A DNA stretch of 64,000 bases from NCBI GenBank assembly GCA_947165685.1, contig CAMVBK010000003.1, positions 39,299-103,298 of the forward strand, read 5' to 3'. The position numbers were made by a program, and so were the translations under genes. This stretch comes from an uncultured Bacteroidales bacterium. GTDB taxonomy: Bacteria; Bacteroidota; Bacteroidia; Bacteroidales; WCHB1-69. The notes under the pieces were generated by a model. It was not told where the DNA came from, ran no database searches, and was given only the letters and a program-made list of their open reading frames with translations. Positions 3,100 to 64,000 of the stretch are shown here, piece after piece. Within the stretch, counting starts at the first letter, position 1; the number at the start of each line of letters is the position of its first letter.

Positions 3100-3191
3100 G
3101 CACTTCTCCCCAACCTCCCCACCGGCTCCACCATCAACAACTACTAAAATATCCGCGAGGAACAACGGAAAGACATTGAGCCAGACAGCCA

Positions 3192-3221
3192 ATCGGCGGG
3201 CCGATGAGCTTCGAGGAGTGA
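3192..3221 (+). repeat. Copy C of the gene-end repeat (shorter)
   Basis: atcggcgggccgatgagcttcgaggagtga; matches the last 30 bp of copies A and B. Confidence 0.85.
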
Positions 3222-49086: not shown

Positions 49087-50166
49087 ATGTCAGAGAAAAT
49101 CTTATCCAAAGTGAAACCCGGTGTGGTTTATGGCAAGGATCTCCAGGAGATCTTCCACATTGCAAAAGCTAACAAGTTCGCTCTTCCGGCAGTGAACGTG
49201 GTCGGTACCGACTCGATCAACGCCGTCATGGAGGCCGCCAAGGCGGTGAACTCCCCGGTGATGATCCAGTTCTCGAACGGCGGCGGCGTGTTCTGCGCCG
49301 GCAAATCGTTGAGCAACGACGGCCAGGCGGCTGCCATCGCCGGTTCCATCTCCGGAGCCATGCACATCCACCGCATGGCCGAGATGTATGGCATTCCCGT
49401 GGTCGTGCACACCGACCATGCCGCCAAGAAACTCCTCCCCTGGATCGACGGGCTGCTCGACGCAGGTGAGAAATACTACGCCGAGAATGGCAAACCGCTC
49501 TTCAGCTCCCACATGCTCGACCTCTCGGAAGAGCCTCTGAAAGAGAATATTGAAATCTGCAAGAAGTATCTGGCCCGCATGGCCAAGATCGAGATGACTC
49601 TCGAAATCGAGCTCGGCATCACCGGTGGCGAGGAAGACGGTGTCGATAACACCGGCATCGACAGCGCACGTCTCTACACTCAACCTGAAGATGTGGCCTA
49701 CGCCTACGAAGAACTCAGCAAGATCAGCCCCAACTTCACCATCGCCGCCTCCTTCGGCAACGTCCATGGTGTCTATAAACCCGGCAATGTGAAGCTGGAG
49801 CCCATCATCCTGCACAACTCCCAGGAATACATCCAGAAGAAGTTCAACACCGAAGCGAATCCTGTGAACTTCGTTTTCCACGGCGGCTCCGGATCCGAAC
49901 CCGCCAAAATCAAGGAGGCTATCAGCTACGGTGTCATCAAGATGAATATCGACACCGACACGCAATGGGCGTTCTGGGAAGGCGTGATGAACTACTACAA
50001 GAAAAACGAAGCCTACCTGCAAAGTCAGATTGGCAACCCTGAAGGCGAAGACAAACCCAACAAGAAGTACTACGACCCGCGCATGTTCCTGCGTGAAGGC
50101 GAAAAGTCCATGGTCGAGCGCCTCAAAGTGGCGTTCAGCGATTTGAACTGCATCGACAGACTGTAG
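49087..50166 (+). CDS. fba: Class II fructose-bisphosphate aldolase
   Basis: FALPAVNVVGTDSINAVMEAA, VVVHTDHAAK, LEIELGITGGEEDGV, FHGGSGS. Confidence 0.95.
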   Translation: MSEKILSKVKPGVVYGKDLQEIFHIAKANKFALPAVNVVGTDSINAVMEAAKAVNSPVMIQFSNGGGVFCAGKSLSNDGQAAAIAGSISGAMHIHRMAEMYGIPVVVHTDHAAKKLLPWIDGLLDAGEKYYAENGKPLFSSHMLDLSEEPLKENIEICKKYLARMAKIEMTLEIELGITGGEEDGVDNTGIDSARLYTQPEDVAYAYEELSKISPNFTIAASFGNVHGVYKPGNVKLEPIILHNSQEYIQKKFNTEANPVNFVFHGGSGSEPAKIKEAISYGVIKMNIDTDTQWAFWEGVMNYYKKNEAYLQSQIGNPEGEDKPNKKYYDPRMFLREGEKSMVERLKVAFSDLNCIDRL

Positions 50167-50167
50167 T

Positions 50168-50222
50168 CGGCTGTTGGCTGTTGGCTGTTGGCTGTTGGCA
50201 GATATGCCAAACGCCAACAGCT
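50168..50222. repeat. Tandem heptamer (ggctgtt x4) plus inverted copy, forming a hairpin between convergent genes
   Basis: cggctgttggctgttggctgttggctgttggcagatatgccaaacgccaacagc. gctgttggc pairs with gccaacagc. Probably a bidirectional terminator for fba and rnhA. Confidence 0.8.
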
Positions 50223-50238
50223 AATGGCTAAAAGCCCA

Positions 50239-50880
50239 TTATTTCCTTCCGAAATCCGCCGGAATTTCGCCCCATAGCGTCGTATTCCACTTGTAGATGG
50301 GGGTGTCGTAGGTGTTGCTGCGCAGCCAATTCTCGGCACGGGCCAACAGGTTGATGACTTCCGCCGTCTCAGCGGTGGGGCGAATCACGGAGTTGTGTTT
50401 CTTCTTGCGCACCCACGACAGGGCGGTCATGCTGTCGGTATAAATCGGAATGTCAAAGCCTTGCTGTTTGATTAGCGCAAGGCCATGCACGATGGCCAGG
50501 AACTCGCCCACGTTGTTGGTGGCATGGGGGAACGGCCCCTTGTGGAACCACTCCTTGCCGGTCTCGGTATAGACTCCGCGGTACTCCATCACTTTCGTCA
50601 CGGAATTCCACGCCGCGTCCACGGAGAGACTCCGCAAGATGGGTTTCTGCTGGTCCTGGAGCAGAAGCAACTGTTTCGCGGAATTGTTCGGGGATGGATT
50701 CTCCTTGTAGAACTTCTTGTAACCCTGCTTGAAAGCCGCCATCGCGTCAGCGCGGCTCTCAAACGACTTGTACTTGGCGTTCTCGAAATGATAGACCTGG
50801 TTCTTGCAGTCATTCCAGTTGTCGTAAACCCCAGGCGTCACCCCTTCCCACACCACATAGTATTTTTGTTGCTTTGCCAT
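50239..50880 (-). CDS. rnhA: Ribonuclease HI with N-terminal hybrid-binding (viroplasmin-like) domain
   Basis: N-domain YYVVWEGVTPGVYDNWNDCKNQV..F.NAKYKSFESRADA. RNase H core SVDAAW...TNNVGEFLAIVHGL...IYTDS. ATG 50880 was chosen. Confidence 0.8.
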   Translation of the reverse strand: MAKQQKYYVVWEGVTPGVYDNWNDCKNQVYHFENAKYKSFESRADAMAAFKQGYKKFYKENPSPNNSAKQLLLLQDQQKPILRSLSVDAAWNSVTKVMEYRGVYTETGKEWFHKGPFPHATNNVGEFLAIVHGLALIKQQGFDIPIYTDSMTALSWVRKKKHNSVIRPTAETAEVINLLARAENWLRSNTYDTPIYKWNTTLWGEIPADFGRK

Positions 50881-51037
50881 CTTAAAAATGTTATTTTTGC
50901 CGTTGCTTTTTTTCGTTTTTTGGGGTGGCAAAAGTACACAAATTTCGAATACGGGAAAAAGCAACGGAAGAGAAGCGAATCAGCGTGTTATGGCTGTGTA
51001 AATTATTGACAATAAAACAATTAAAATAGCAATTAGT

Positions 51038-51556
51038 ATGAAGAAGATAGGTTTTCAACGAGGGATTTGTGCGGCTTTCACCGCGGTCTTTCTGCTTTTT
51101 GGCATCGCTGCGTGCGACAGCTTGTCCAACCGGCGCGGCGGCAACGACATTCAGGAGGTGCGCCATGAGTTCCCGAACACCAACTGGGCTTTCGAGGAAG
51201 AGGTGCTGGACTTCAACTTTACCATCGAAGACACCGCCAAATACTATGACGTGTCCGTCGCATTGGTTTACGACACCACCGTGGCCGCTTTGCCGGACAT
51301 CCCGCTCTCCCTCACCTTGAGCACCCCCGACGGCATGAAATCATTCTCCACCAGCCATTTCCTGCTCAACCGAAAAGAGAATCCGGGCATCAAGCCCACG
51401 GGAGACGGCAACAATGCGGAAATCGACGTGGTCGTTTATCCGCGGCGCAAGTTCAAAGTCCCCGGCACCTACACCCTCACCGTCTATCGCCGCGCCGACA
51501 AAGCTGACAATTTCGGATTCGTCAGTTTGAGCGCGAAAGTCCGTGCCGTTAAATAG
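51038..51556 (+). CDS. Lipoprotein, GldH-like (tentative)
   Basis: Lipobox FGIAAC. Size and pattern (W.f...l.F.F.i.D....Y.v.v.l.......P.G) resemble gliding-motility lipoprotein GldH. Not verifiable here. Confidence 0.4.
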   Translation: MKKIGFQRGICAAFTAVFLLFGIAACDSLSNRRGGNDIQEVRHEFPNTNWAFEEEVLDFNFTIEDTAKYYDVSVALVYDTTVAALPDIPLSLTLSTPDGMKSFSTSHFLLNRKENPGIKPTGDGNNAEIDVVVYPRRKFKVPGTYTLTVYRRADKADNFGFVSLSAKVRAVK

Positions 51557-51589
51557 CATGTCATTGAATCCTGAACCTTGAACCAGCCA

Positions 51590-53194
51590 ATGCGTACCAA
51601 ATTCAACATCCCCCATACTTTCACCATTGTCTTCGGCATCATCGCCGTGTGCGCGGTCCTGACTTGGATTGTGCCTGCCGGACAATTTGACCGTCAGACG
51701 GTTACAGTTGATGGACACGAGCGCAACGTGGTGGTGGCCGACTCCTACCATCGCGTGGATTCCGCGCCCCAGACTTGGCAGGTTTTCACCGCCTTTTTCA
51801 AAGGGTTTGAGCGCACCTCCGGCATCATCGTCTTCATTTTGATGATCGGTGGCGCATTCTGGGTGATGAACGAAACCGATGCCATCAACCGGGGCATCTG
51901 GCTTTTCTTGGACAAAACCCAGCGGATGCAGCAGCACGTCCTTTTCCGAAAGGTCGGGGTCAATAATCTGTTGATTATTGCCATAATGCTGATGTTCAGT
52001 CTGTTCGGGTCGGTGTTCGGGATGAGCGAGGAGACCATCGCCTTCATTGTAGTCTTTGTACCGCTGGCCGTCTCGATGGGCTACGATTCCATCACGGGCG
52101 TACTGATGTGCTACGTGGCCGCGCACGTGGGCTTCGCGGGCGCCATGCTCAACCCCTTCACCATCGGCATTGCGCAGGGACTGTCCGGGCTGCCCACTTT
52201 CTCGGGCCTCGGCTATCGGCTGCTCTGTTGGATCATCCTGACGGTTATCGCCATTGTCTTCACGCTGATATATGCCAATTACATCAAGAAAAATCCCGAA
52301 AAGTCGCTGACATACAGCATCGACAGCTATTGGCGCGAGAAAACGGCCGTGACGGATTCGCAACGCGAGATGGTGAAATCCGGCATTCCCGCCTGGATCG
52401 TCTATGGCTGCATTTCCGCAGTCTTGATATACTGCGCCGTCGCGATGCCCTACACCGACATCACCGTCGGCATGGGCAGCCGTCGCGTGATGCTTTTCCC
52501 GATTTGGGCGGCTTTGTTCGTCGTTATCGGCTTCTTCGCAACCCGGAAATCCGTCCACCATCTGATACTTACGCTGTTGCTGTTCACGATTCTGATTCTC
52601 GTGACGGGCGTGTTGGGTTATGGCTGGTATGTGATGGAGATTGCGGGCCTCTTCTTCGCGATGGGCGTCTCCGCTGGCATCGCCTTCGGGATGAAATTCG
52701 ACAAGGTGGTCCGCAGCTTCCTGGAAGGTTGCAAAGACATTCTCGTGGCCGCGCTCGTGGTCGGTTTGGCCGGCGGCATCATCATCATTCTGGAAGACGG
52801 TCACATCATCGACACCATCCTTTACGCCGTGGCGCAGGGGATGCAAGGGGCCGGCCGCGTCGGCAGCACGGCCACCATGTACGTGATGCAGAACCTGTTG
52901 AACCTGATTATCCCGTCAGGCTCCGCCAAGGCCGCGCTCACCATCCCGATGATGGCCGAATGGTCGGATCTGATGGAGATTCCGCGGCAGCTGACGGTCC
53001 TGGCCTTCCAGTTCGGCGATGGTTTCACCAACATGATTACCCCCACGTCCGGTGTGCTTATCGGCGTGCTCGGCGTGGCGCGGATTCCCTATGCCACTTG
53101 GTTCAAGTTCATCTGGAAGTTCCTTTTGGTGCTTATCGTGTTGGGCTTCCTCTTGTTGCTCCCGCCGCTGTTCATGCCGTTCGCAGGTTTCTGA
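51590..53194 (+). CDS. YfcC family (DcuC-like) membrane transporter
   Basis: About 534 aa and polytopic. The opening MRTKFNIPHTFTIVFGIIAV..LTWIVPAGQFDR is typical of YfcC. ATG 51590 is preferred over TTG 51578. Confidence 0.8.
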   Translation: MRTKFNIPHTFTIVFGIIAVCAVLTWIVPAGQFDRQTVTVDGHERNVVVADSYHRVDSAPQTWQVFTAFFKGFERTSGIIVFILMIGGAFWVMNETDAINRGIWLFLDKTQRMQQHVLFRKVGVNNLLIIAIMLMFSLFGSVFGMSEETIAFIVVFVPLAVSMGYDSITGVLMCYVAAHVGFAGAMLNPFTIGIAQGLSGLPTFSGLGYRLLCWIILTVIAIVFTLIYANYIKKNPEKSLTYSIDSYWREKTAVTDSQREMVKSGIPAWIVYGCISAVLIYCAVAMPYTDITVGMGSRRVMLFPIWAALFVVIGFFATRKSVHHLILTLLLFTILILVTGVLGYGWYVMEIAGLFFAMGVSAGIAFGMKFDKVVRSFLEGCKDILVAALVVGLAGGIIIILEDGHIIDTILYAVAQGMQGAGRVGSTATMYVMQNLLNLIIPSGSAKAALTIPMMAEWSDLMEIPRQLTVLAFQFGDGFTNMITPTSGVLIGVLGVARIPYATWFKFIWKFLLVLIVLGFLLLLPPLFMPFAGF

Positions 53195-53290
53195 GGCAGC
53201 GTGAACAATAAATTGGAAAGCGTCACCGACTGGATATTTCCCCAAAAAACTACCAAAACAAACGCAACCTGAAAAATCTTCCAACTGATT

Positions 53291-54220
53291 ATGAAGAAGA
53301 AACTGAAACTTAAAGAGAAAATCCAGAAGTTCCGGGCATGGCGCGAGCGGCCCTGCAAGGTCGCGCCGATGTCAACCGAAGAGCACGAGTGCCTGAACTG
53401 TCATGACCATTATATCGGAAAGTACTGTCCCCGTTGTGGGCAGGCCGCAACCACACAGCGCTTTTCCATGAAGGTGGCGGCAGAGAATTTTGTCAATGAA
53501 TACGGCATGGGCGAGCGCGGAATGTTCCGTACCATCCGGGACATTATCCTGCGCCCCGGCTTTTTGATTCTCGATTACCTCCGCGGCATGAGAATGTCCT
53601 ATTTTGCCCCCTTCAAGATGTATTTTCTGCTCGCCGCCATCTCCCTCCTCGTAACCCACGGGCTGAACATCACGGGCCAGCCTCTCCAAGACGATTCCGA
53701 AGCCGACAAAGTGGAGGTGTCTGCGGGAAAGGATGCGGAAGGAACTGACAAAACGGAAACAGATGCCGCTAAAAGCTTCAAAGAAGAATATCCAAGACAA
53801 GCGAAAATACATTCCATTGTGTATGGAGTGGTAAACAAAATGGAACGTTTCGCGCAAAAATACCCCAGCATAAACATCTTGCTGATACTGATGCTCATTT
53901 CGGGAAACCTATATTTCTTTTTCCGCCACAGCCCGAACATCCCCGACCTGCGCTATCCCGAGTTGTTCATCTCGTTGGTTTATATCGCCAACATGTACAC
54001 CATCTATTCTATCGTGTTTAGTTTCTTCGGCCTGACAAAGCTGACCTCGTACGCCATTTTTCTCACGATAATCCCTCTCAAACAGATGAGCGGCTACAGC
54101 TGGTGGCGCACTATCCTGAAGACCGTGACCGCCTTCACCATCATGTTTGTACTTTTTGTCCTGTTCGTCGTAATAGCGGTGTTCTGCATCTCTATGCTCG
54201 TGAGAGCATTCGGAAGTTGA
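53291..54220 (+). CDS. DUF3667-like zinc-ribbon membrane protein
   Basis: N-terminal CLNCHDHYIGKYCPRCGQ followed by several TM helices. Confidence 0.65.
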   Translation: MKKKLKLKEKIQKFRAWRERPCKVAPMSTEEHECLNCHDHYIGKYCPRCGQAATTQRFSMKVAAENFVNEYGMGERGMFRTIRDIILRPGFLILDYLRGMRMSYFAPFKMYFLLAAISLLVTHGLNITGQPLQDDSEADKVEVSAGKDAEGTDKTETDAAKSFKEEYPRQAKIHSIVYGVVNKMERFAQKYPSINILLILMLISGNLYFFFRHSPNIPDLRYPELFISLVYIANMYTIYSIVFSFFGLTKLTSYAIFLTIIPLKQMSGYSWWRTILKTVTAFTIMFVLFVLFVVIAVFCISMLVRAFGS

Positions 54221-54243
54221 GGCCTGTGCCTCCTCCATATCCC

Positions 54244-56703
54244 TTAATTTCCCATTCCGCCGCCACTGCCTTCGCTGGCCGCGCCCTGGCGTGCCTGCTG
54301 CTCCAGCTCCATCTTGCCGAATCGCAGCGTGAAGCCCAACGACACTGAACGGGAGTTGTACTTGTAGGTGCTGTGCGAGACATAGTACGGACTGTCGTTG
54401 TTCTGGCCCCAGCGGTTCCAGTTGAAGATGTCGTTGGCGTTCAGATAGACCGACAGCTTCTTGTCGAAGAAGTCGCAACGCAGTCCCGCGTTAATGCTGT
54501 AGTAGGGCAGGGTTGTGCTGAACAACGACAAGGAGGGCGACTGATAATATCCGGACACGCTGATTTCCAGACGTTTCCATAGCTTCGCCCACACGCTGGC
54601 ATTGAAGCTGTAGGTCCACTTGTCGGCCTTGTACATCTCGCCGTTATACATCGTCTCCAAATAGGAGTAATAGACGTTCGCGTAGAAGCGGACGTTGAGC
54701 ATGGCGTTCGGGCGGTACATCGTGTTGAACTCCAGTCCCGTGTTCGACGATTTGCCGACATTCACCGGATAGGAGTAACGCACCAGTTCGCCGTAGAGGT
54801 CGTGGTAGGCGGGGACGCTGATGGTGTTGATGTCGCGGTCTTTGGCGCGGAAGTAGAGGGTGAGGCCCACTGAGCCGTACTTGGTCCAGTATTTCTGCCA
54901 GCCGGCCTCCAAGGAGTGCGTCAGGATGGACTTCAACTCCGGGTTGCCGCTGCTGAAGTCCTCCTCGTCGAATTCCACGAAGCGCGTGAGCTGGTCGGCG
55001 TCGGGGTTGCTGCTGCGGAAAGTGTAGCTCAGGCGGAAGTTGTGCATCGACTTGGTGCGGTACGACAGGTGCAGCGACGGCCGGATGTGGAAATAGTGCT
55101 TGCGGATGCCGAAGGTGTCGGGCACGATGTCGGGATAGCGCAACGTGACGTATGTGTGTTCGAGGCGCACGCCCGGCTTGATGGTGAAGTTGCCGAACTT
55201 GTGCTGCAGCGTGAAGAAGACTTGGTTTTCGAACTGCGGCGACAGGTGGAAATAGCTGCGGACAGAATCGCGCACCCACGCGCCCGCCTGCATCGTATCG
55301 ACATAGTTATAGCCTTTGTCACGCTCTATGGCGCCGTAGTAGCCCAAGGAAATCTCGCCATTCTCGGAGTAGGGCCGGTTGTAGGTCAGCTCGCCCGAGA
55401 CATTGAACGAGCTGCCGTCGTAGTCCATGAGGCGGTCGCGCTTGCTCTCGACCGGCTGGAGGAAGAGCTTGTGTAGCTCCGACTTGCTCATCCAGCCCCA
55501 CGTGCTGCCGTTCAGATCCACGGAGAGGTTGTGCCCCTTGTTGTCGAACTTGTGCTGGTAGTATGCGCCGAAACCGCCCCAGTGGCTGCGGTTACGCCCC
55601 GTTGCGTTCTCTTTGTAGAAAACGGTGTCCGGGATCAGGAAGAATTCCTGCAACTGCTCGTTGTAGCCCTTGCTGTCTCCCCAGCTCGGCCAATAGCTGC
55701 CCCAGAAGGAGAGGGTGTTCGCCGTGTCAATGTCATAGTCGAGGCTGAAGTGGATGCCGGCGCCGTACCGGTTGCCCTTGGAATAGGTCGAGTCTGTCTC
55801 GAAACTCACCATCTCGCGGCCCTCTTCGCCGGGTTGGTAGATGGTCTGGTCTCCCTTCCCGAAGTGCTTGTCCATCGAGTAGGAGAAGTTGCTGTAGAGG
55901 TTGATGGATATCTTGTCGTTGCTCCAGACGTAGGAAATCCACGGGCTCACGTATGGTTTGATGGAGGCGTTGGCACCGAAGCTGATGAACTGGTTCTTCT
56001 TGATTTTGCTGTTCGTCACGATGTTGATGATGCCGTCGGCCTTGGAACCGTAGCGGGCCGACGGGTTGGTGATGACCTCCACGTGGTCGATGCTGTTGGC
56101 GGGCATCTGCTGGAGGTAGGTCTTGAGGTTTTCTTCCGTGAGGTGCGACGGCTTGTCGTTGATCCAGACCTCGACGCTGGAGGTGCCGCGCAGGGTGACG
56201 TTGCCCTCCACGTCCACCGACACGCCCGGCGCGTTCTGCAGCACGTCGGAGGCGGTACCGGTCTGCACGGTCGGGTCCTCGGCGGTGTTGTAGTAGGTCT
56301 TCTCGCCATCCACCGCGAACAGCGGCCGCTCGCCCTTCACCACCACCTCGCCGATGGTGGCTGTCCCCGGGGTGATCTTGAGCGTGCCGAGGTCAACGTC
56401 CTTTTTGACGGAAATCATCTGCACGTAATTCTCGTAGCCCACGAAAAAGACCACCAGGCGGTAGTCGTCGTTCGGGACCATCTGCAGCTGGAAAGCGCCC
56501 TTCTCGTCGGCGGAAGTGTAGCCCACCAGCACGCTGTCGCTCTGCCGCAGCAGGCTCACATTCGCGTACTGCACGGGCTTCCCGGTTTTTACGTCCTGTA
56601 TCACGCCGGAAATTGTGTTTTGAGAAAATGCTGACAAACAGAAAGTTGTTGTTAGCAAAAAGAGGACAACTGCTTTTGAAACTGCTTTTCTTTGTTGTGT
56701 CAT
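54244..56703 (-). CDS. Outer-membrane beta-barrel (TonB-dependent-receptor-like) protein with carboxypeptidase-regulatory-like domain
   Basis: Signal peptide, then ISGVIQDVKTGKPVQYANVSL (CarbopepD_reg). The plug-like region is DVLQNAPGVSVDVEGNVTLRG, and the barrel ends in FTLRFGK. ATG 56703 was chosen. Confidence 0.8.
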   Translation of the reverse strand: MTQQRKAVSKAVVLFLLTTTFCLSAFSQNTISGVIQDVKTGKPVQYANVSLLRQSDSVLVGYTSADEKGAFQLQMVPNDDYRLVVFFVGYENYVQMISVKKDVDLGTLKITPGTATIGEVVVKGERPLFAVDGEKTYYNTAEDPTVQTGTASDVLQNAPGVSVDVEGNVTLRGTSSVEVWINDKPSHLTEENLKTYLQQMPANSIDHVEVITNPSARYGSKADGIINIVTNSKIKKNQFISFGANASIKPYVSPWISYVWSNDKISINLYSNFSYSMDKHFGKGDQTIYQPGEEGREMVSFETDSTYSKGNRYGAGIHFSLDYDIDTANTLSFWGSYWPSWGDSKGYNEQLQEFFLIPDTVFYKENATGRNRSHWGGFGAYYQHKFDNKGHNLSVDLNGSTWGWMSKSELHKLFLQPVESKRDRLMDYDGSSFNVSGELTYNRPYSENGEISLGYYGAIERDKGYNYVDTMQAGAWVRDSVRSYFHLSPQFENQVFFTLQHKFGNFTIKPGVRLEHTYVTLRYPDIVPDTFGIRKHYFHIRPSLHLSYRTKSMHNFRLSYTFRSSNPDADQLTRFVEFDEEDFSSGNPELKSILTHSLEAGWQKYWTKYGSVGLTLYFRAKDRDINTISVPAYHDLYGELVRYSYPVNVGKSSNTGLEFNTMYRPNAMLNVRFYANVYYSYLETMYNGEMYKADKWTYSFNASVWAKLWKRLEISVSGYYQSPSLSLFSTTLPYYSINAGLRCDFFDKKLSVYLNANDIFNWNRWGQNNDSPYYVSHSTYKYNSRSVSLGFTLRFGKMELEQQARQGAASEGSGGGMGN

Positions 56704-56747
56704 AATCCAAAATAATAAGATTGTTGCAAACAATTGTTTGTAATCGG

Positions 56748-56755
56748 CAAAGATA
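56748..56755 (-). promoter_or_regulatory. -7 promoter box TAtcTTTG (minus strand) with a downstream 14-bp palindrome
   Basis: The plus strand reads caaagata. The palindrome caaacaattgtttg at 56727-56740 lies between the box and ATG 56703. Confidence 0.4.
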
Positions 56756-56815
56756 TAATTTTTACCTATACGGACCGTTTCCGTTTATCCCGAAAAATTG
56801 ATCTGGGGAAATCAA

Positions 56816-57004
56816 TTAGCGTTTTCTGGGGATTCCGAGCTGTTTGCAGATTGCGTCTGCCAGCTCTTCGTCAATGTCAGCGTGCCTCGGAATGGTCGTT
56901 TTCACTTTTGTTTCCGTGTTGATGTAAACATCGTGTTTTTTGCCGTGGTTTAGAAATTCGCACTTGTATGCTTTCAGATGGTTGATGAGGACTTTTCTTT
57001 TCAC
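56816..57004 (-). CDS. hicA: Type II toxin HicA
   Basis: 62 aa. LINHLKAYKCEFLNHGKKHDVY....KTTIPRH.DI is the HicA/YcfA mRNA interferase pattern. Confidence 0.85.
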   Translation of the reverse strand: MKRKVLINHLKAYKCEFLNHGKKHDVYINTETKVKTTIPRHADIDEELADAICKQLGIPRKR

Positions 57005-57216
57005 AGTATGGCTATTTTCTTTCGGATGAATTTGTTGCCCTTTGATTTCTTTTGCGTTTCTTCTGTTTCTGTTTCCAAGATGAGGTCTATGGCGTCATGC
57101 AGGTTCTCCATGGCTTCTTCCTCCGTGTCTCCCTGGGTGAGCGCCGCCGGTAGCTGCTCACATTGGGCTATGTAATGCCCGCTTTTGGTCTTTTTCACGA
57201 TGGCTGTATATTCCAT
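57001..57216 (-). CDS. hicB: Type II antitoxin HicB
   Basis: MEYTAIVKKTKSGHYIAQCEQLPAALTQGDTEEEAMENLHDAI. Overlaps hicA by 4 nt. Confidence 0.8.
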   Translation of the reverse strand: MEYTAIVKKTKSGHYIAQCEQLPAALTQGDTEEEAMENLHDAIDLILETETEETQKKSKGNKFIRKKIAIL

Positions 57217-57294
57217 ATTTTTGCTTTTTATTAAAGAATTATTTTACGGCTGCAAAAATAATATTTTTTCATTTCAGTGCCTCAAATCTTTTTG

Positions 57295-57302
57295 TATCTT
57301 TG
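57295..57302 (+). promoter_or_regulatory. -7 promoter box TAtcTTTG
   Basis: Lies 21 nt upstream of ATG 57324. Confidence 0.45.
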
Positions 57303-57323
57303 TCCCGTTAAAATTTCAATACG

Positions 57324-58265
57324 ATGCCCCGAGGAAAATCCACATGCAAGGTCCTGAAGGAGGTGCGGCGGAGGGTCGCCGAAGCCAACAACATCCCGCT
57401 GCAGGAGCGCGAATGCACTCACACGGGCGACTGCGCGGGCACGTGCCCCTACTGCGAGTCGGAGGTGCGCTACCTCGAACGCGAACTGTCGAAACGCCGC
57501 GCCCTCGGCAAGGCCGTCGCAGTGGCGGGCATCGCGATGCTGTCGGTGGCACCGGCGGTCGCGCAGACACCGGAGACCCCTGAAGCCGGCACCGGACCGC
57601 AAAAACACGCCGGCCCGACTATCCCTGCGGCTCCGGATTCCGCGAAACCCTGCGACACCTACCGGATGATGGGCATCGTCCCGAAAGAGGTTGCTGAACA
57701 GGAAGTTGACACAGCCGCTGAATCAGACCTCCCGACAAGTTTGGACACTATAGAGGTGGTTTTTGAACCGCCTGAATTTGCTATGGACGGCACGGTGTCG
57801 GCCCCACGATCGGTCAGAAAAGACGTGTGGCGTTTCCCTTCTGAATATGGCACATTCAAGTCTTTCATGCACCGTCAATTGAAAAACAATCCGGAATTGC
57901 GGAAGTGGCTCAAGGGAAAAACGAAACTGGATCATGCAAAACGGTCAGAAATAAAACACTCCCGTGATCCTATTGAGCGTATGATGGAAAAACAATGGAA
58001 AAAAGAAAGACGTCAATATCGGAAAGAGGAGCGTTCCTCGAAGTACAAATCCGTCAATGACAATGCTTTCCTTCTGGAATTCAATCAAGACGGCGAGGTG
58101 GTGGATGTCCGTCTGCGTTTTGCGATTTCAGGAGAAGAGGACGAGCGCATGTTTGGCGCCTTTTACCGTATTATCGACAACATGCCCCGTTGGACACTCA
58201 ACCCCAAGATGTCCCCACCTACGGATATGATATTCCAGGAATATCCTTATTGGATCTTGCGGTGA
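57324..58265 (+). CDS. Cys-rich N-terminal domain / single TM / TonB-C-like periplasmic domain protein, paralog 1
   Basis: MPRGKSTCKVLKEVRRRVAEANNIPLQERECTHTGDCAGTCPYCESEVRYLE, then TM AVAVAGIAMLSVAPAVA. The C-terminus LLEFNQDGEVVDV....MPRWT resembles the TonB_C fold pattern. Confidence 0.55.
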   Translation: MPRGKSTCKVLKEVRRRVAEANNIPLQERECTHTGDCAGTCPYCESEVRYLERELSKRRALGKAVAVAGIAMLSVAPAVAQTPETPEAGTGPQKHAGPTIPAAPDSAKPCDTYRMMGIVPKEVAEQEVDTAAESDLPTSLDTIEVVFEPPEFAMDGTVSAPRSVRKDVWRFPSEYGTFKSFMHRQLKNNPELRKWLKGKTKLDHAKRSEIKHSRDPIERMMEKQWKKERRQYRKEERSSKYKSVNDNAFLLEFNQDGEVVDVRLRFAISGEEDERMFGAFYRIIDNMPRWTLNPKMSPPTDMIFQEYPYWILR

Positions 58266-58379
58266 TTATCCCGGCAGAAAAAGCGCCTTTAAACGCCATT
58301 CTTGTGTTAAAATCGGTTAAAAGTGTGGTTTGGGACGGTTTTTGAAGGAACTGGAGAAGAGTTGTGTGAGAAAAATTTA

Positions 58380-58387
58380 TACTTTTG
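58380..58387 (+). promoter_or_regulatory. -7 promoter box TActTTTG for the TA pair
   Basis: Lies 36 nt upstream of ATG 58424. Confidence 0.4.
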
Positions 58388-58423
58388 CGGCATCATTATA
58401 TCGAACGACAAAATAAACATATT

Positions 58424-58627
58424 ATGTGTACGGTAACCATTACATACGACAACAATGACACTGTCATTGCGGACTTGATTGCCAAAATCAAAAGCAGAGG
58501 GGCCGTTGTGGTGTCAAATGATGAACTGGAATATAATCCAGAATTTGTGGCAAAGGTCCAACGGGGACACGCGGCTTATTTGAACGGAGAATGTGTGAAA
58601 GTTGATGTGGATAACCTATGGAGTTAA
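58424..58627 (+). CDS. Putative antitoxin partner of the YoeB/Txe toxin
   Basis: 67 aa; overlaps the toxin start by 10 nt. No Phd/YefM motif recognised, so it is assigned by position. ATG 58424 was chosen. Confidence 0.55.
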   Translation: MCTVTITYDNNDTVIADLIAKIKSRGAVVVSNDELEYNPEFVAKVQRGHAAYLNGECVKVDVDNLWS

Positions 58628-58890
58628 TGTTTTCACCCGATGCGTTGGATGATTTGAACTATTGGAAACAATCCGGAGCGGTCATAAACCAGCGAAAAAT
58701 ACAAAAGATTTTGAAGTCCATGAAAACTGACGCGTGTTCAGGGTTAGGTCATCCGGAGCCATTGACGGGTAATTTATCCCGATATTGGTCTCGCAGGATA
58801 GATAAGAAAAACCGCATTGTGTACGAAATCTTCGAAGAGGAACAGGTAATCAACGTGGTCTCATTACGAGGTCATTATTTTGACAAGTAG
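58618..58890 (+). CDS. Txe/YoeB family type II toxin
   Basis: FSPDALDDLNYWKQSG...GLGHPEPLTGNLSRYWSRRIDKKNRIVYEI....INVVSLRGHY. Confidence 0.85.
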   Translation: MELMFSPDALDDLNYWKQSGAVINQRKIQKILKSMKTDACSGLGHPEPLTGNLSRYWSRRIDKKNRIVYEIFEEEQVINVVSLRGHYFDK

Positions 58891-58899
58891 TTATTAACG

Positions 58900-59838
58900 A
58901 TGCCCCGAGGAAAATCCACATGCAAAGTACTGAAGGAGGTGCGGCGGAGGGTCGCCGAAGCCAACAACATCCCGCTGCAGGAGCGCGAATGCACTCACAC
59001 GGGCGACTGCGCGGGCACGTGCCCCTACTGCGAGTCGGAGGTGCGCTACCTCGAGCGCGAGCTGTCGAAACGGCGCGCCCTCGGCAAGGCCGTGGCGGTG
59101 GCGGGCATCGCCCTCTCGGCGGTGACGATGGCCGGTTGCGCGACTTCCGAGCCCGTGAGTTCCGATTCTTCGAACAACCCCAGAAAGACTCCTTTCCGGG
59201 ATATAAAGTCTGCTCTTTCTTGGATGGGCGCCATTGTTGTAGAAAACAATGACAAGCCGGACGCTTGTAATCCGGAAAAGAACAAGTCGAAGAAAAAGAA
59301 GCGGCAGGAAAATTGCGATACCTTGCAGTTGCGGGGAATTGTACTCGACCCTGAATCAAGGCACGATACGGCCCAAAAGGAGATCACTTTCGATGAAAGT
59401 CTTCTGCTCGATGAGGGTGAGGATAAGCAAAAAACGGGAAATGACGAAGTCATTGTTGGCTTGGTGGATGATCAGGGTTTTCAAAATCGGATCTTCAACG
59501 AAGAACAACGAATTGCTTCTGAGTCAATTCCGGGTTTTACACCGGCCGTTTTCATGGAAGGCCAGTTCGAGGAATGGCTGCGCGGCCAGCTTCAAAAGTT
59601 CCAGTCTTACATGCAGGATCCGCGTCTTGATCCCGTGGAAATCCGCTTTTTCGTGGAAGAAGACGGTTCCGTGTCGTTGATCAACGTCCAGAACATGCCG
59701 GAAATTTACAAACAGGAAGACGAGGCGTTCCGCGCGAAAGTTACCGCAGTGGTCAGCGGTTCCGAATGGACACCGGCGACCGTTTCAGGCAAGCCCATCT
59801 CCTCCATCGTCACCGTCCACCTGCGGGATCTTCGGTAA
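58900..59838 (+). CDS. Cys-rich N-terminal domain / TM / TonB-C-like protein, paralog 2
   Basis: The first 212 nt are near-identical to 57324-57535. The C-terminus AVFMEGQFEEWLRGQL....VEIRFFVEEDGSVSLINV....EAFRAKV...SEWTPATVSGKPISS is TonB_C-like. Confidence 0.55.
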   Translation: MPRGKSTCKVLKEVRRRVAEANNIPLQERECTHTGDCAGTCPYCESEVRYLERELSKRRALGKAVAVAGIALSAVTMAGCATSEPVSSDSSNNPRKTPFRDIKSALSWMGAIVVENNDKPDACNPEKNKSKKKKRQENCDTLQLRGIVLDPESRHDTAQKEITFDESLLLDEGEDKQKTGNDEVIVGLVDDQGFQNRIFNEEQRIASESIPGFTPAVFMEGQFEEWLRGQLQKFQSYMQDPRLDPVEIRFFVEEDGSVSLINVQNMPEIYKQEDEAFRAKVTAVVSGSEWTPATVSGKPISSIVTVHLRDLR

Positions 59839-59855
59839 TCAGCAAATTGTTACAT

Positions 59856-59890
59856 AAACTCCTAAACTCCTAATCTCCTAAACTCCTAAT
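59856..59890. repeat. Tandem aaactcct/aatctcct octamer tract (CYYCTAAA family)
   Basis: taaactcctaaactcctaatctcctaaactcctaa. Overlaps the last codons of the minus-strand gene 59878-60288. Confidence 0.85.
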
Positions 59891-60288
59891 TCACGAATCC
59901 TCCCATTCTCAAAATCAATCTCAAACACCTTCTTCTCCAGCCCGTTCGTCACGCACAGCAGAGGGGCCTTTAGGACGCTGTTGTAGCGGGCGGCCTGTTC
60001 CGCTACCTTCTGCGTGAGCTTCACATGCGGGGCCTTGCATTCCACCACCATGTACGGCTGCAACGCATCATCGAAGATCACCAGGTCGTAACGCTGGGTC
60101 ATCCCGTTGACCGTCACGGCGTGCTCGACGGAGAGGTGCGACAACGGGAACCCCTTGACATTCAGCAGGTAGAGGATGAAAATCTGTCGGACACGCTCCT
60201 CGGGCGTGAGCACGACCCACTTCTGCCGCACGGGGTCGAAAACCTCCTGCTGTGCATCGTTTTCCCGTATTTTCAATGTAAATGCCAT
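59878..60288 (-). CDS. Type I restriction enzyme HsdR N-terminal domain-like stand-alone protein
   Basis: 136 aa. PEERVRQ.F..YL......P...L.VE.......RYDLVIFD....YMVVECKAP is the HsdR_N (PD-(D/E)XK-like) pattern common as a solo gene in Bacteroidota. Confidence 0.7.
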   Translation of the reverse strand: MAFTLKIRENDAQQEVFDPVRQKWVVLTPEERVRQIFILYLLNVKGFPLSHLSVEHAVTVNGMTQRYDLVIFDDALQPYMVVECKAPHVKLTQKVAEQAARYNSVLKAPLLCVTNGLEKKVFEIDFENGRIRELGV

Positions 60289-60334
60289 TTCTGCTGTCCT
60301 CTATCCTTGTTTATTTACCATTCCTAATTCATAG

Positions 60335-61486
60335 TTACCCTAATTTCGCCTTGTACGAGGCGTAGTCGCCGGGTTGCGCGAGCATCTCGAACTGGCCGTC
60401 CTGGTGGATGACCCCGATGGCGGGATGCGCCACCCCGTTGAAGAAGGTGGTTTTCACCATCGTGTAGTGGATCATGTCGTCGAAGACGATGCGGTCGCCG
60501 ATCTCCAACGGCTCCTTGAAGGCGAAGTCGCCCATGCCGATGAAGTCGCCGGCGAGGCAGGAGCAGCCGCCTAAACGATAGACGTACTTGCTGTGTTCGT
60601 CGGGTTCGGAGGCGTCCAAGACCGTCGGCTTGTAGGGCATTTCAAGGCAGTCGGGCATGTGGCAGGCGAAGGAGACGTTGAGCATTGCGATTTTGATGCC
60701 CTTGTTCACCACGATGTCCTCCACGGTGGAGGTCAGCACGCCGGTCTGCCAGCCCACGGCCTCGCCCGGTTCGAGAATCACCTCTTGGAGGTTGGGGTAG
60801 CGTTTTCGGAAGTCCTGCAGCAGGCCGATGAGGTGCGGGATGTCGTAGTCGGCGCGGGTGATGTGGTGGCCGCCGCCCATGTTGAACCACTTGCACTGCC
60901 GGATGAGGTCGGAGAATTTCTCCTCCACGGCCTTCAGGCAGCGTTCGAGGGCGTAGCTGTCGTTTTCGCAGAGCACGTGGAAATGCAGCCCCTCGATGCC
61001 TTCGGGCAGCGTGTCGGGCATGTCCTCGCGCAGGATGCCTAAGCGCGACCCGGGCACGGCGGGGTTGTAGAGATCGGTCTCGATTTCCGAATATTCGGGG
61101 TTGATGCGCAGTCCGAGCGAGACCTTCTTGGAAAAGGCCATCGCCTGTTCGCGGAACCTCTCGTACTGTCCCAACGAGTTGAACGTCAGGTGACTGCTGT
61201 ACATGAGCAGCTGTTCGAAGTCTTGGTCGGTATAGACGGGGGCGTAGGTGTGGGCCTCGCAGCCCATCTCCTCGGCGATGAGCCTCGCTTCGTTGAGGGA
61301 GCTGGCGGTGGCGCCGCTGAGCCACTCGCGGATGAGCGGGAACGACGGCCAGAAAGCGTAGCCTTTGAGGGCGCAGATGATCCTCACGCCGGCCTCTTTC
61401 TGCACGAGGTCCAGCAGTTGCAGGTTGGCTAACAAGGCTTCCTCCGAGAGGATGTAGCACGGGGAGGGTAGGGTGTTGTAATTCAT
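60335..61486 (-). CDS. nspC: Carboxynorspermidine/carboxyspermidine decarboxylase
   Basis: 383 aa. TLPSPCYILSEEALLANL, ICALKGYAFW, and HFHVLCEN...FNMGGGHHIT is an Orn/DAP/Arg decarboxylase fold lacking the PLP lysine context of LysA. Confidence 0.8.
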   Translation of the reverse strand: MNYNTLPSPCYILSEEALLANLQLLDLVQKEAGVRIICALKGYAFWPSFPLIREWLSGATASSLNEARLIAEEMGCEAHTYAPVYTDQDFEQLLMYSSHLTFNSLGQYERFREQAMAFSKKVSLGLRINPEYSEIETDLYNPAVPGSRLGILREDMPDTLPEGIEGLHFHVLCENDSYALERCLKAVEEKFSDLIRQCKWFNMGGGHHITRADYDIPHLIGLLQDFRKRYPNLQEVILEPGEAVGWQTGVLTSTVEDIVVNKGIKIAMLNVSFACHMPDCLEMPYKPTVLDASEPDEHSKYVYRLGGCSCLAGDFIGMGDFAFKEPLEIGDRIVFDDMIHYTMVKTTFFNGVAHPAIGVIHQDGQFEMLAQPGDYASYKAKLG

Positions 61487-61706
61487 AAATCAGGAATTAT
61501 ATGGGGTTCTGGGATTGGGGGAGGGGAGTTGGGCGAGTTTGACGGGGCGGCAAAGATAGCATATTTTTGTATTGAATAATTGTGTAGTTTTGCACGTTGA
61601 TATTCCGGCTCTTTTGGCGGGGCGGCAACCTCCGGAAATTCAGGAGGCCGCCAGAATAACCGGGACTGGATAAATGGCAATTTTTAACATCAAATAATAA
61701 TATCGT

Positions 61707-62939
61707 ATGAGACAAGAAAAACTCTTCAACGGCAAAACATTGGCGATTCTTTCCGGCGGCGGCGACACCCCGGCCATCAATTCCAGCATCGAGGCGGTGC
61801 GCAACCGTGCCTCCATGCTCGGCTTCCGCGTCTATGGCGTGCTGCGCGGCTGGAAGGGCCTGCTCGGCGACGGCGACATCGTCGATTTGACCAATATCCC
61901 CTACAACGGCCTCTACGGCGGCACCGCGCTGCTCTCCTCCCGCACCAACCCCTTCCCGAGCAAGAAGAGCCCCGAGGACCGTTCCCAGCAGATTCTCCGC
62001 AACATCGAACGCTACAAGATCGACGTTTTGGTGACCATCGGCGGTGACGACACCAACGGCGCGGCCAAGAAGATGTACGAGAAATACGGCATCCCGGTCA
62101 TCGGCTTCCCGAAGACCATCGACAACGACCTTCGCACCCACACCTACCACCACTACAACGGTCAGCAGCACGAGACGGTGCTCTGTCCGGGTTTCCCGTC
62201 CGGTGCCATGGCCATCAAGAAGCTGACCGCCAAGCTGCACACCACCAACGAGTCGCACCAGCGCATCATGGTGCTTGAGGTGATGGGCCGCGACGCGGGT
62301 TGGCTCACCGGCACGGCCTCCTTCGGCGGCGCCCAGCTGGCCCTCGTGCCCGAGGTGGAGATGACCAAGGAACGTAAGGAGTTCTTCTTCGAGACGGTCA
62401 AGGAGATGTACATGCGTTCCCCGAAGCACAGCCTCATCATCGCCGCCTCCGAGGGTGTGCGCTGGTGGGATGACGAGAAGGAGGAACTCGGCATGGTGTA
62501 TGCCAGCTCCGATCTTGACGAGTACGGTCATCCGCGCTTCGGCGGTGTGAGCGGCGTCATCGCATCGGAAATCAACAAGAAGCTCGGCATCGAGGCCCGC
62601 GGCCAGATCTCCGGCTACATCCCGCGCTCCGGCAAGTGCTACGAGTACGACCGCCGGCTGACCTCCACGTTGGCCGACAAGGTCGTCGATCTGCTGCTCC
62701 GCGAGGACTACGGCAAGATGCCCGTTTTGCGCGACATCGTGCCCTACGACGAGCTTGAGGAGTTCCACACCGACGCCATCGAGATGGGCAACGTCGGCAA
62801 CTTCCCGCTGCCCGCCGCCTACTACGACCCCAACAAGTTCATGTTCACCGACCAATACACCGACTTCCTGACCAACATCATCGGTGCACCCTACCGCATG
62901 GAGTTCACGCAGAATTTCCCGATTGTAATCCCGGAATAA
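61707..62939 (+). CDS. pfp: Pyrophosphate-dependent phosphofructokinase (PPi-PFK)
   Basis: ILSGGGDTPAIN, IGGDDTNG (Asp where ATP-PFKs have Gly), GFPKTIDNDL (Lys where ATP-PFKs have Gly), and MGR.AGW. Confidence 0.8.
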   Translation: MRQEKLFNGKTLAILSGGGDTPAINSSIEAVRNRASMLGFRVYGVLRGWKGLLGDGDIVDLTNIPYNGLYGGTALLSSRTNPFPSKKSPEDRSQQILRNIERYKIDVLVTIGGDDTNGAAKKMYEKYGIPVIGFPKTIDNDLRTHTYHHYNGQQHETVLCPGFPSGAMAIKKLTAKLHTTNESHQRIMVLEVMGRDAGWLTGTASFGGAQLALVPEVEMTKERKEFFFETVKEMYMRSPKHSLIIAASEGVRWWDDEKEELGMVYASSDLDEYGHPRFGGVSGVIASEINKKLGIEARGQISGYIPRSGKCYEYDRRLTSTLADKVVDLLLREDYGKMPVLRDIVPYDELEEFHTDAIEMGNVGNFPLPAAYYDPNKFMFTDQYTDFLTNIIGAPYRMEFTQNFPIVIPE

Positions 62940-62973
62940 GTGATTGGTGATTAGTGATTGGTGATTAGTGAAT
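62940..62973. repeat. Tandem heptamer tract gtgattg/gtgatta x4
   Basis: gtgattggtgattagtgattggtgattagtgaat, immediately after the pfp stop. Confidence 0.9.
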
Positions 62974-63079
62974 AAAACAATTAACTTAAAAATAATTCCT
63001 TGAGCAGCCCTGTAAGGGCAAGATATGTCAGCCCAGAGTAAAGCCGGAGGCCGCAGCCCTGGGTTAAAATGAAAAAGTC

Positions 63080-64000
63080 ATGGCAGAATTTATCATCGAA
63101 GGCGGCCATCGGTTGCACGGCGAGATCACCCCGCAGGGCGCGAAGAACGAAGCCCTGCAGGTGCTCTCGGCCGTCTTGCTGACGCGTGAGCCCGTCACCA
63201 TTTCCAATATCCCCGACATCCTCGACACGCGGCGTTACATGGACATCCTGAAGCTGATGGGGGTGAAAGTGACCCGCATTGACGCGCACACGTTCACTTT
63301 CCAGGCCGAGGACGTCGATTTCGAGCAGTTGCACACGGAAGAGTTTGTGCGGCTGTCGGCCAAGATCCGTGCCTCCATCATGGTGCTCGGCCCGCTGTTG
63401 GGCCGATACGGCAAGGCCTACTCTGGCAAGCCCGGCGGCGACCAGATCGGGCGCCGCCCGCTGACCACCCACTTCGAAGGCTTGGAGAAGTTAGGCGCAG
63501 TGATTTCCACTTCGCCCGACGAGAAGTTCTTCGAGTTGGAGGCCAAGCAATTGAAAGGCTGCTATATGCAGCTGAACGAGCCCTCCGTGACGGGCACCGC
63601 CAACATTGTGATGGCGGCGGTGCTGGCGGAAGGGGAGACCACCATCTTCAACGCCGCCTGCGAACCCTATCTCTACCAGCTTTGCACCATGCTCAACAAG
63701 ATGGGCGCGAGGATTGAAGGTATCGGTTCTAATCTGCTCAAAATAAAGGGCGTCAAGGAGTTGCACGGATGCGAACACCGCATCTTCCCCGACATGATCG
63801 AGGTGGGCAGCTTTATCGGCATGGCTGCGATGACCCAGTCGGAGCTTACCATCAAGGAGTGCGCCTGCGACCATCTCGGGCTCATCCCCTACACGTTTGC
63901 GAAGATGGGCGTGAAGTTCGACCGGGTGGGCGACGACCTCGTGGTGCACGGGCAGGAGCCGTACAGCATCTACACCAACCCGATGGATGCCTCCATCCTG
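63080..64000 (+). CDS. murA: UDP-N-acetylglucosamine 1-carboxyvinyltransferase, 3' end outside window
   Basis: Absent from the ORF track because no stop falls in the window. MAEFIIEGGHRLHGEITPQGAKNEALQVLSAVLLT...KPGGDQIGRRPLTTH. The frame stays open to 64000. Confidence 0.9.
   Translation, partial: MAEFIIEGGHRLHGEITPQGAKNEALQVLSAVLLTREPVTISNIPDILDTRRYMDILKLMGVKVTRIDAHTFTFQAEDVDFEQLHTEEFVRLSAKIRASIMVLGPLLGRYGKAYSGKPGGDQIGRRPLTTHFEGLEKLGAVISTSPDEKFFELEAKQLKGCYMQLNEPSVTGTANIVMAAVLAEGETTIFNAACEPYLYQLCTMLNKMGARIEGIGSNLLKIKGVKELHGCEHRIFPDMIEVGSFIGMAAMTQSELTIKECACDHLGLIPYTFAKMGVKFDRVGDDLVVHGQEPYSIYTNPMDASIL

Follow-up and report, generated by a model that had tools for sequence, protein, structure and literature searches.

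What keeps the starts of two neighboring genes nearly identical while the rest of each gene has diverged? The question is raised by two open reading frames (ORFs) at positions 57,324 to 59,838 of a 64,000-nucleotide (nt) stretch of DNA from an uncultured Bacteroidales bacterium of the WCHB1-69 group (contig CAMVBK010000003.1; the whole stretch is referred to as the window). An original prediction for this DNA had proposed a polymorphic C-terminal cassette system, in which a constant head carries swappable tails and is stabilized by a toxin-antitoxin (TA) pair, applied to a signal- or energy-transducing membrane protein. Our analysis indicates that the heads remain near-identical through very strong family-wide purifying selection together with gene conversion within genomes. 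The explanation we consider probable as a whole combines a conserved leader, gene conversion, and structural variants bounded by the repeats, and treats the two ORFs as old tandem paralogs of a large unnamed family. The genes and their shared modules are as follows.

57324..58265, + strand: paralog 1, a 313-amino acid (aa) ORF with the head, AVA followed by Q81, a Pro-rich linker, and a TonB_C-like domain with a charged helical insertion
57324..57535, + strand: head module copy 1, a Cys-rich two-helix domain and the onset of a hydrophobic segment
58900..59838, + strand: paralog 2, a 312-aa ORF with the head, the lipobox TMAG followed by C80, a Ser/Lys-rich linker, and a TonB_C-like domain
58900..59111, + strand: head module copy 2, the same as copy 1 at 205 of 212 nt

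Conserved heads and gene conversion

Nucleotide alignment of the two modules bore out the proposed near-identity. They match at 205 of 212 nt, and the seven differences (module positions 27, 30, 156, 162, 174, 195, and 198) all lie at third codon positions and are synonymous, the encoded 71 head residues being identical in the two paralogs. Identity sets in 3 nt 5' of each ATG (ACGATG) and decays from codon 72, within the hydrophobic segment. A repeat search extended the pair to 57321-57548 and 58897-59124 (94% over 228 nt, spacing 1,576 nt), and found no second direct repeat in 50000-64000. When the C-terminal ~240 residues of the paralogs were compared by BLASTP, no similarity was detected beyond a short CDTxxxxGIV motif, and the picture of a constant head on two different tails therefore stands. 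The two parts also differ in composition. GC content is about 68% in the head module and 41-50% in the tails and the intervening TA genes, against 52% for the window, and GC content at third codon positions (GC3) is 0.84 in the head, 0.55 in the remainder of the copy-1 gene, and 0.55-0.59 in the tails. The GC3 contrast recurs in other Bacteroidales arrays, although not in all Bacteroides, and the high value in the head is compatible with GC-biased gene conversion, codon selection being the alternative.

The head is conserved far beyond this locus. A homolog search with paralog 1 returned 532 proteins, and identities and tail classes were read from the 120 listed. All 120 of these listed matches agree with the window at 77-97% of the first 71 residues, and at least three tail classes occur, namely the tail-1 type (48 of 120, 25-90% identity), the tail-2 type, and a class positive for Pfam TonB_C. 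A scan of species-representative genomes yielded 76 genome loci with heads 54-94% identical to that of the window (70-94% in rumen Bacteroidales, 54-68% in Bacteroides and Muribaculaceae, and 54-67% in metagenome-assembled genomes [MAGs] of Firmicutes and Chloroflexi), with family members in Bacteroidales, Clostridia, and Chloroflexi. A phmmer search with the head recovered at least 2,672 representative clusters at E<=1e-3, and in nearly all of the 150 clusters among the matches listed the head forms the start of the protein, which is 90-430 residues long. Pfam and NCBIfam scans of both window proteins returned no model for the head, only noise, and Pfam matches in 73 Bacteroidales relatives fell in the tail domains only, none of them in the head. 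Bacteroides members carry public names such as 'energy transducer TonB', 'TonB family protein', and 'carboxypeptidase-like regulatory domain-containing protein'.

To follow heads and tails separately, we compared the window with about 98 related contigs and genome loci, numbered here with the prefix L. Tandem arrays of two to four family genes are common among them, and within arrays the heads show 69-96% nucleotide identity and the tails 21-67% protein identity. Between window paralog 2 and its ortholog in L001, 6 of 724 nt differ in the tail and 15 of 212 in the head (Fisher p = 2e-6), corresponding to synonymous divergences (dS) of 0.006 and 0.24, respectively. The two window heads differ from each other at 7 sites, fewer than separate either from its ortholog's head, and both carry two private variants, A90 and T96, that occur neither in L094 nor in any of 11 related copies. 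Similarly, L008_4964 and L009_8001 have tails that are 100% identical and heads that are 90% identical. In B. faecalis, the heads of two paralogs are 94% identical to one another and 75-84% identical to other Bacteroides heads, whereas their tails are nearer to the orthologs of other species. Heads group by genome and not by tail type in several lineages, and head dS lies at 0.12-0.24 across all comparisons. The contrast between head and tail divergence, the shared private variants, the L008/L009 pair, and the B. faecalis paralogs demonstrate that selection alone is insufficient; the heads form a shared recombining pool, and the tails diverge independently.

Many MAG and metagenome contigs begin or end in or beside a head module (L035, L038, L027, L016, L006, L083, and L088). 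This suggests that the multi-copy head breaks short-read assemblies, and the number of head copies per genome is therefore probably underestimated.

A probable leader, TonB-like tails, and a radical SAM neighbor

Alignments of the family show that C8, C31, C37, C41, and C44 of the head are invariant, that H33 is nearly so, and that a helix with the pattern ExEVRYLE is conserved. Both window proteins agree with the family consensus at every invariant position (C8...C31-x-H33-x3-C37-x3-C41-x2-C44, and the EVRYLE helix). AlphaFold models of both paralogs place helices at residues ~7-21 and ~42-60 with the Cys-bearing loop between them, and this ~60-residue domain is predicted to be cytoplasmic and probably binds metal. 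A search of PDB sequences with the head gave a chance match to a C2H2-finger consensus (E 0.013) and ferredoxin-type CxxxCP segments (E>0.6), neither of which we take as evidence. The idea of a zinc-binding anti-sigma (ZAS-like) domain, raised by the C37xxxC41xxC44 spacing, was dropped as there was no zf-HC2 match; it is also disfavored by the lack of a recurrent sigma-factor gene among the genes sampled immediately upstream of arrays.

The hydrophobic segment that follows, AVAVAGIA(M/L)..., spans 16-18 residues and contains no His. It ends in PAVA followed by Q81 in paralog 1 and in the lipobox TMAG followed by C80 in paralog 2, and C80 is invariant in the alignment of tail-2 orthologs. A PROSITE-type lipobox is present at domain position ~80 in 92 of 143 representative clusters, in 52 of 83 Bacteroidota members from the genome loci, and in 20 of 23 Firmicutes and Chloroflexi members, while members without a lipobox mostly have AxA-Q. 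The segment thus looks like the h-region of a signal peptide rather than a permanent transmembrane anchor, and from these sequence patterns we infer that the head module is a cleaved leader and not a permanent TonB anchor. Given the lipobox or AxA-Q immediately after the segment, the point at which the paralogs cease to resemble each other would mark the boundary between the leader and the exported part. The original prediction had placed the collapse of similarity at a transmembrane helix; its location within the hydrophobic segment was right, and its description as a membrane-spanning helix is the part that we would revise. The module-bearing protein would then consist of the two-helix Cys domain, the hydrophobic segment, a signal-peptidase-type motif, a disordered linker, and one of the following C-terminal domains.

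57816..58262, + strand: diverged TonB/TolA-C-terminal-like domain of paralog 1, residues ~165-313 (hhalign, secondary structure, Foldseek)
59551..59835, + strand: diverged TonB/TolA-C-terminal-like domain of paralog 2, residues ~218-312 (hhalign, Foldseek)

Neither window protein matched Pfam TonB_C (PF03544) at E<=0.1, yet the proposal of TonB_C-like ends found support from more sensitive comparisons. By hhalign, the two tails align with each other over 52 columns (probability 97%, E 1.9e-10), and tail 2 aligns with Pfam-positive TonB_C relatives (93%, E 2.4e-7). The AlphaFold models of the two paralogs share a terminal beta-beta-alpha-beta unit, placed at matching positions in both, with a pLDDT of 77-93 over residues 161-313 of paralog 1, which also carries a charged helical insertion of ~50 residues. 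In Foldseek searches against the PDB, the C-terminal domains of TonB, HasB, FusB, and TolA ranked first. The best match for paralog 2 was the HasB domain (E 3.6e-3, probability 0.98), followed by those of TolA and TonB, and for paralog 1 the best matches were TonB domains, which were weak (E >= 0.25). The YP motif present in the alignment consensus of Pfam-positive relatives is represented in paralog 2 by YMQDP, with the Y and P apart, and paralog 1 has no YP at the matching place. Tail-2 orthologs are 34-99% identical, the tail lineages span 40-99% identity in many genomes, and in four of five informative ortholog comparisons the tail dN/dS was 0.17-0.35, indicating purifying selection on the tails. 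Both tails are therefore old, remotely homologous TonB/TolA-C-terminal-like domains.

These ends invite the view that both proteins are genuine TonB energy transducers with an uncleaved inner-membrane anchor, whose head docks to the ExbBD motor or to a cytoplasmic regulator and whose different C-terminal domains recognize different TonB-dependent receptors, such as the product of the gene at 54244-56733, 0.6 kb upstream. Consistent with this view, 42 of the 73 Bacteroidales relatives match Pfam TonB_C, 13 also carry CarbopepD_reg_2, and the public names point the same way. However, no Ser/His coupling motif for ExbB/ExbD was found in the hydrophobic segment of the window proteins, and the segment is short and, in most members, leads into a lipobox or AxA-Q. 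Moreover, proteins that lack TonB_C carry the head in monoderm Firmicutes and in Chloroflexi, and in the window itself neither protein reaches the Pfam TonB_C model or retains an intact YP motif. Finally, the recurrent partner at other loci is a radical S-adenosylmethionine (SAM) gene, and no other recurrent neighbor, exbBD included, was seen among the genes sampled immediately upstream of arrays. We consider the transducer view unlikely, and the energy-transducing role originally suggested for these proteins is doubtful.

The radical SAM gene encodes a PflA-like protein of ~200 aa and directly adjoins one or more family genes at 45 of 76 genome loci in Bacteroidota, Firmicutes, and Chloroflexi; 21 of the 23 Firmicutes and Chloroflexi loci are among these (examples of the arrangement are L033 4932-5531, L050 8432-9046, L037 6382-7017, and L014 8916-9554 on the - strand). 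Compared with three references from different phyla, the neighboring proteins show 43-87% identity to the best match, and they lack a ferredoxin insert. Their best NCBIfam matches are TIGR02494, PflA, and other activases of glycyl-radical enzymes, at 112-141 bits against a cut-off of 174, and they fall under every curated NCBIfam cut-off. No homolog was detected in the 64-kb window by tblastn with three such proteins (E>0.1 for all matches). In related MAGs, the radical SAM gene lies beside a TonB_C-class member on another contig, as in L023 compared with L007, both from ruminal_MAG_164. The Cys-rich domain presumably works with this neighboring enzyme. The motif phi-x-G-[D/E/I]-[V/I/M/L/P] is four- to eightfold more frequent in the exported parts of family members than in shuffled controls. 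It appears as YRMMGIVP in paralog 1 (57666-57689) and as LQLRGIVL in paralog 2 (59323-59346), and it is repeated in Firmicutes members, e.g., L046.

We tentatively propose, as a possibility that we rate low, that the head serves as leader in a radical-SAM-dependent pathway of anaerobes that has not been described before. The dedicated PflA-like enzyme would recognize or modify the cytoplasmic Cys-rich domain with its fused signal peptide before the attached lipoprotein or periplasmic protein is exported. The domain could bind Zn or Fe-S, and the phi-x-G motif could be a candidate modification site. If so, the leader must suit a single enzyme, which would explain why its copies are homogenized by gene conversion; the leader would then act as portable homology, with tails and TA modules gained, lost, and reshuffled as a side effect. 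Were this true, many Bacteroidales 'TonB' annotations would be wrong. The radical SAM link is a hypothesis that lies outside the window, and a literature search found no description of it or of the head domain.

Head-bounded units and the resident TA pair

The remaining features of the array and its flanks are listed below.

56816..57004, - strand: hicA toxin gene, at the left flank of the array (Pfam HicA_toxin E 1.3e-6, 28.8 bits against a cut-off of 27)
57001..57216, - strand: HicB-like antitoxin gene, divergent from paralog 1 (Pfam HicB_lk_antitox E 2.3e-4, under the cut-off)
57295..57302, + strand: Bacteroidetes-type -7 box TATCTTTG, a pattern match 22 nt before the paralog-1 ATG and a putative promoter
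58252..58388, + strand: conserved promoter-bearing intergenic element of ~130 nt upstream of the TA operon, with the invariant core GTGTTAAAATCGGTTAAAAG...
58380-58387, + strand: -7 box TACTTTTG, a pattern match 37 nt upstream of the TA operon
58424..58627, + strand: DUF2683 gene, presumed antitoxin, 67 aa (Pfam PF10884 E 4.6e-11)
58618..58890, + strand: YoeB/Txe-type toxin gene (Pfam YoeB_toxin PF06769 E 5.6e-22, 78 bits against 27)
59878..60288, - strand: small PDDEXK-like HSDR_N_2 gene, at the right flank of the array (Pfam E 7.2e-33)
60335-61486: nspC-like decarboxylase gene, beyond the HSDR_N_2 gene

The YoeB-type pair proposed to lie between the head copies is present at 58424-58890. DUF2683 comes first and overlaps yoeB by 10 nt, and both proteins score above curated thresholds; YoeB also reaches 72.5 bits against a cut-off of 51.8 for NCBIfam TIGR02116 and ends in ...RGHYFDK. 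A small gene thus lies directly upstream of yoeB, as expected of an antitoxin gene, with DUF2683 in place of the classical YefM/Phd making this a variant pairing. The pair recurs in L001-L003, L007, L083, L084, L088, and L093. In L003, the yoeB ortholog (7268-7543) carries two nonsense mutations, R26* and W57*, and the antitoxin gene and arrangement are intact. The hicA and hicB-like genes overlap by 4 nt.

The paralog-2 ATG follows the yoeB stop codon at a distance of 9 nt, and no TAnnTTTG was found on the + strand of 58388-59838. Paralog 2 thus has no separate -7 box and is probably co-transcribed with the TA operon as its third gene. A ~30-nt flank containing the paralog-1 -7 box is kept before heads in L001, L004, L005, L085, L087, L092, and L094, and on the - strand a further TAnnTTTG box, near the HicB-like gene, spans 57253-57260. 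Copies of the 58252-58388 element stand upstream of TA or IS200-like RAYT genes in L004, L005, L007, L081, L085, L087, and L089, and it may be a mobile promoter or operator cassette. We suggest that a selfish type II TA module, the DUF2683-YoeB operon, has lodged between the repeats, that it now supplies the paralog-2 promoter, and that it may counter-select repeat-mediated loss of the unit; such an effect on deletion between 97%-identical repeats is plausible.

The order head-tail 1, DUF2683-(YoeB), head-tail 2, HSDR_N_2, decarboxylase is found in L001, L002, L003, L007, and L083, and partly in L084, L090/L080, and L093. In L007 the 1,576-nt spacing is kept although tail 2 is only 74% identical. 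Because it recurs in such diverged contigs, the arrangement is stable over considerable divergence. The HSDR_N_2 gene occupies the equivalent position in L001, L003, L007, L081, L086, L088, L089, L095, and L096.

Closely related contigs nonetheless differ from the window by whole units with heads at their ends. L094, a 1.5-kb metagenome contig whose tail 2 is 98.8% identical, reads HicA-HicB, paralog-1 promoter, one head, tail 2, HSDR. Its positions 1-633 match window 56903-57535 (97.8%) and its positions 419-1563 match window 58897-60017 (96.6%), so that it equals the window minus exactly one 1,576-bp unit of tail 1, the TA pair, and one head. L001 and L003 have extra units bounded by heads, with orphan heads. 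In L001 (97% identical), HicAB is followed by an orphan head of 69 codons (3005-3214) with the paralog-1 promoter flank, a 194-aa gene, and a HicB plus helix-turn-helix (HTH) gene before head-tail 1. In L003 (5266-5463) and L082 (715-912), a start-less orphan head lies between a 198-aa gene and HicA. In L095 and L096 the gene order is different, tail 1 is degraded, and the gaps contain RAYT or HicAB. Indeed, gaps in tandem arrays nearly always hold selfish modules, namely HicAB, HicA with HicB-HTH, DUF2683-YoeB, or IS200-like RAYT. Allowing for the possibility of assembly artifacts, these variants demonstrate that the head repeats are substrates for unequal homologous recombination and that related strains differ by head-bounded units; the repeat-bounded unit does appear to be gained or lost, in support of this part of the original prediction.

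An additional orphan head occurs in L010 (6487-6666). The orphan heads break off at the AVAVAG codons or just past them, which is close to, or the same as, the place where the paralogs cease to be alike.

On the left, a TonB-dependent receptor gene (54244-56733, - strand) lies upstream of the array. The L001 ortholog encodes a protein with CarboxypepD_reg, Plug, and beta-barrel domains; at this position L003 has a sialidase gene instead, indicating that the receptor linkage is not conserved. An Rfam search of 52000-64000 found nothing in the head module or TA region and only sub-threshold matches elsewhere, to RsmY (E 0.4) and to the small RNA Acido-Lenti-1 (63006-63063, - strand; 30.7 bits against a gathering score of 37, E 8.7e-4).

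Whether this recombination belongs to a dedicated cassette system, in which specificity is changed by recombining one expressed head onto different tails and the cassette is held in place by the TA pair as an addiction module, can be weighed against the same loci. L094 joins the paralog-1 promoter and head straight to tail 2, the block head-tail 1-TA-head stands before three different tails (window, L080, and L088), the ~30-nt paralog-1-type promoter flank precedes tail-2-type genes in L004, L005, L085, L087, and L092, and TA or other selfish modules fill nearly every tandem gap, all of which speak for such a system. Against it, no silent head-less tail cassette was found in the ~98 loci, where the orphans are heads, and no recombinase gene adjoins the array. 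Every tail has its own full head and ATG, and the tails are complete genes of ancient orthologous lineages, mutually remote TonB_C-like homologs under purifying selection rather than toxins or variable receptors with immunity partners. The conservation of arrangement and spacing in L007, and the retention of the unit in L003 with a pseudogenized yoeB, also argue against it. We therefore regard a dedicated cassette system with swappable tails as improbable, and the original prediction is in this sense only partly right. Horizontal transfer of the block head-tail 1-TA-head was considered for L088 (93.6% for the block against 77% for the HSDR flank) but not adopted, because in other contigs HSDR evolves faster than the decarboxylase gene next to it. 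We consider the mechanism most likely to be passive homologous recombination between leader copies under functional constraint, with the TA modules as lodgers.

That the 5' identity instead reflects purifying selection on protein and codon usage after a simple old duplication, without recombination, is very improbable and already contradicted by the present data: the family-wide head conservation, the extreme GC3, and a uniform head dS that could be a constraint plateau speak for it, but the ninefold greater divergence of heads than tails between near-identical orthologs, the clustering of heads by genome over tail type, the L008/L009 pair with identical tails and heads just 90% identical, and the private variants common to both window heads speak against it.

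Several points weigh against the combined explanation of a conserved leader, gene conversion, and head-bounded variants. Strong synonymous-site selection, as implied by the GC3 of 0.84, could explain part of the low head dS, and for some of the compared contigs only one or two flanking genes show how far the background has diverged. L094 is short and metagenomic, and repeat-induced misassembly is possible; its head is paralog-2-type at 7 of 7 diagnostic sites, which confines any false join to the first ~29 nt. A folded n-region of 60 residues is unusual for Sec or Lsp substrates, cleavage is read from sequence patterns, and the radical SAM partner is absent from the window.

Relation to known systems

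Based on the data presented above, the locus offers a clean natural case in which gene conversion holds a coding 5' module uniform against the divergence of the remaining gene sequence, and the same repeats also appear to generate strain-level gain and loss of a gene-plus-TA unit. Parallels in layout are the Vsp/Vsa families of Mycoplasma and the paralogous lipoproteins of Borrelia, which have a conserved 5' signal-peptide region, divergent mature parts, tandem arrays, and recombination between 5' ends. The window array shares these traits but differs in that its leader holds a 60-residue, probably metal-binding cytoplasmic domain conserved across phyla, in that it has no site-specific invertase or phase-variation machinery, and in that its mature parts are conserved orthologous lineages and not fast-varying antigens. 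Polymorphic toxin, contact-dependent inhibition (CDI), and Rhs systems likewise pair a constant N-terminal part with C-terminal parts that diverge past a sharp homology boundary, and have small genes following the first tail. In the window, however, there are no head-less orphan tails and no toxin domain, both genes are complete, and the genes after tail 1 are a generic DUF2683-YoeB pair, not a cognate immunity gene.

Type II TA modules stabilize repeat-flanked chromosomal segments such as superintegron cassettes and genomic islands. The YoeB-type operon within a deletable segment flanked by direct repeats resembles these, as do the selfish modules that fill most related gaps, but the window has no integron integrase or attC site, its repeats are coding 5' gene ends, and the toxin has decayed in L003.

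The newest aspect is the unannotated Cys-rich leader family together with its hypothesized radical SAM link. A large domain (at least 2,672 clusters) goes unrecognized in anaerobes of the gut and rumen, where the proteins are named 'TonB' or 'hypothetical', and its tie to a small radical SAM enzyme is a lead for new post-translational or export chemistry. The neighboring ~200-aa proteins score best against PflA-family activases and, like them, lack a ferredoxin insert; unlike those systems, there is no adjacent glycyl-radical enzyme, and the partner is a small Cys-rich, leader-bearing exported protein.

A further comparison, bearing on annotation, is with the multi-paralog TonB family of Bacteroides. 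B. thetaiotaomicron has 11 TonB homologs, of which TonB7 and TonB11 carry CarboxypepD_reg-type extra domains (Pollet et al. 2023, PMC10350073). The family studied here is alike in its TonB_C-type C-terminal domain, in having several paralogs per genome, and in the CarboxypepD_reg domain of some relatives. It differs in the window tails, which fall below the Pfam TonB_C threshold, and in the Cys-rich N-terminal domain, the lipobox or AxA-Q, the homogenized tandem 5' modules, and the radical SAM neighbor, none of which is described in PMC10350073. Counts of TonB paralogs in Bacteroidales may include cleaved lipoproteins that are not energy transducers.

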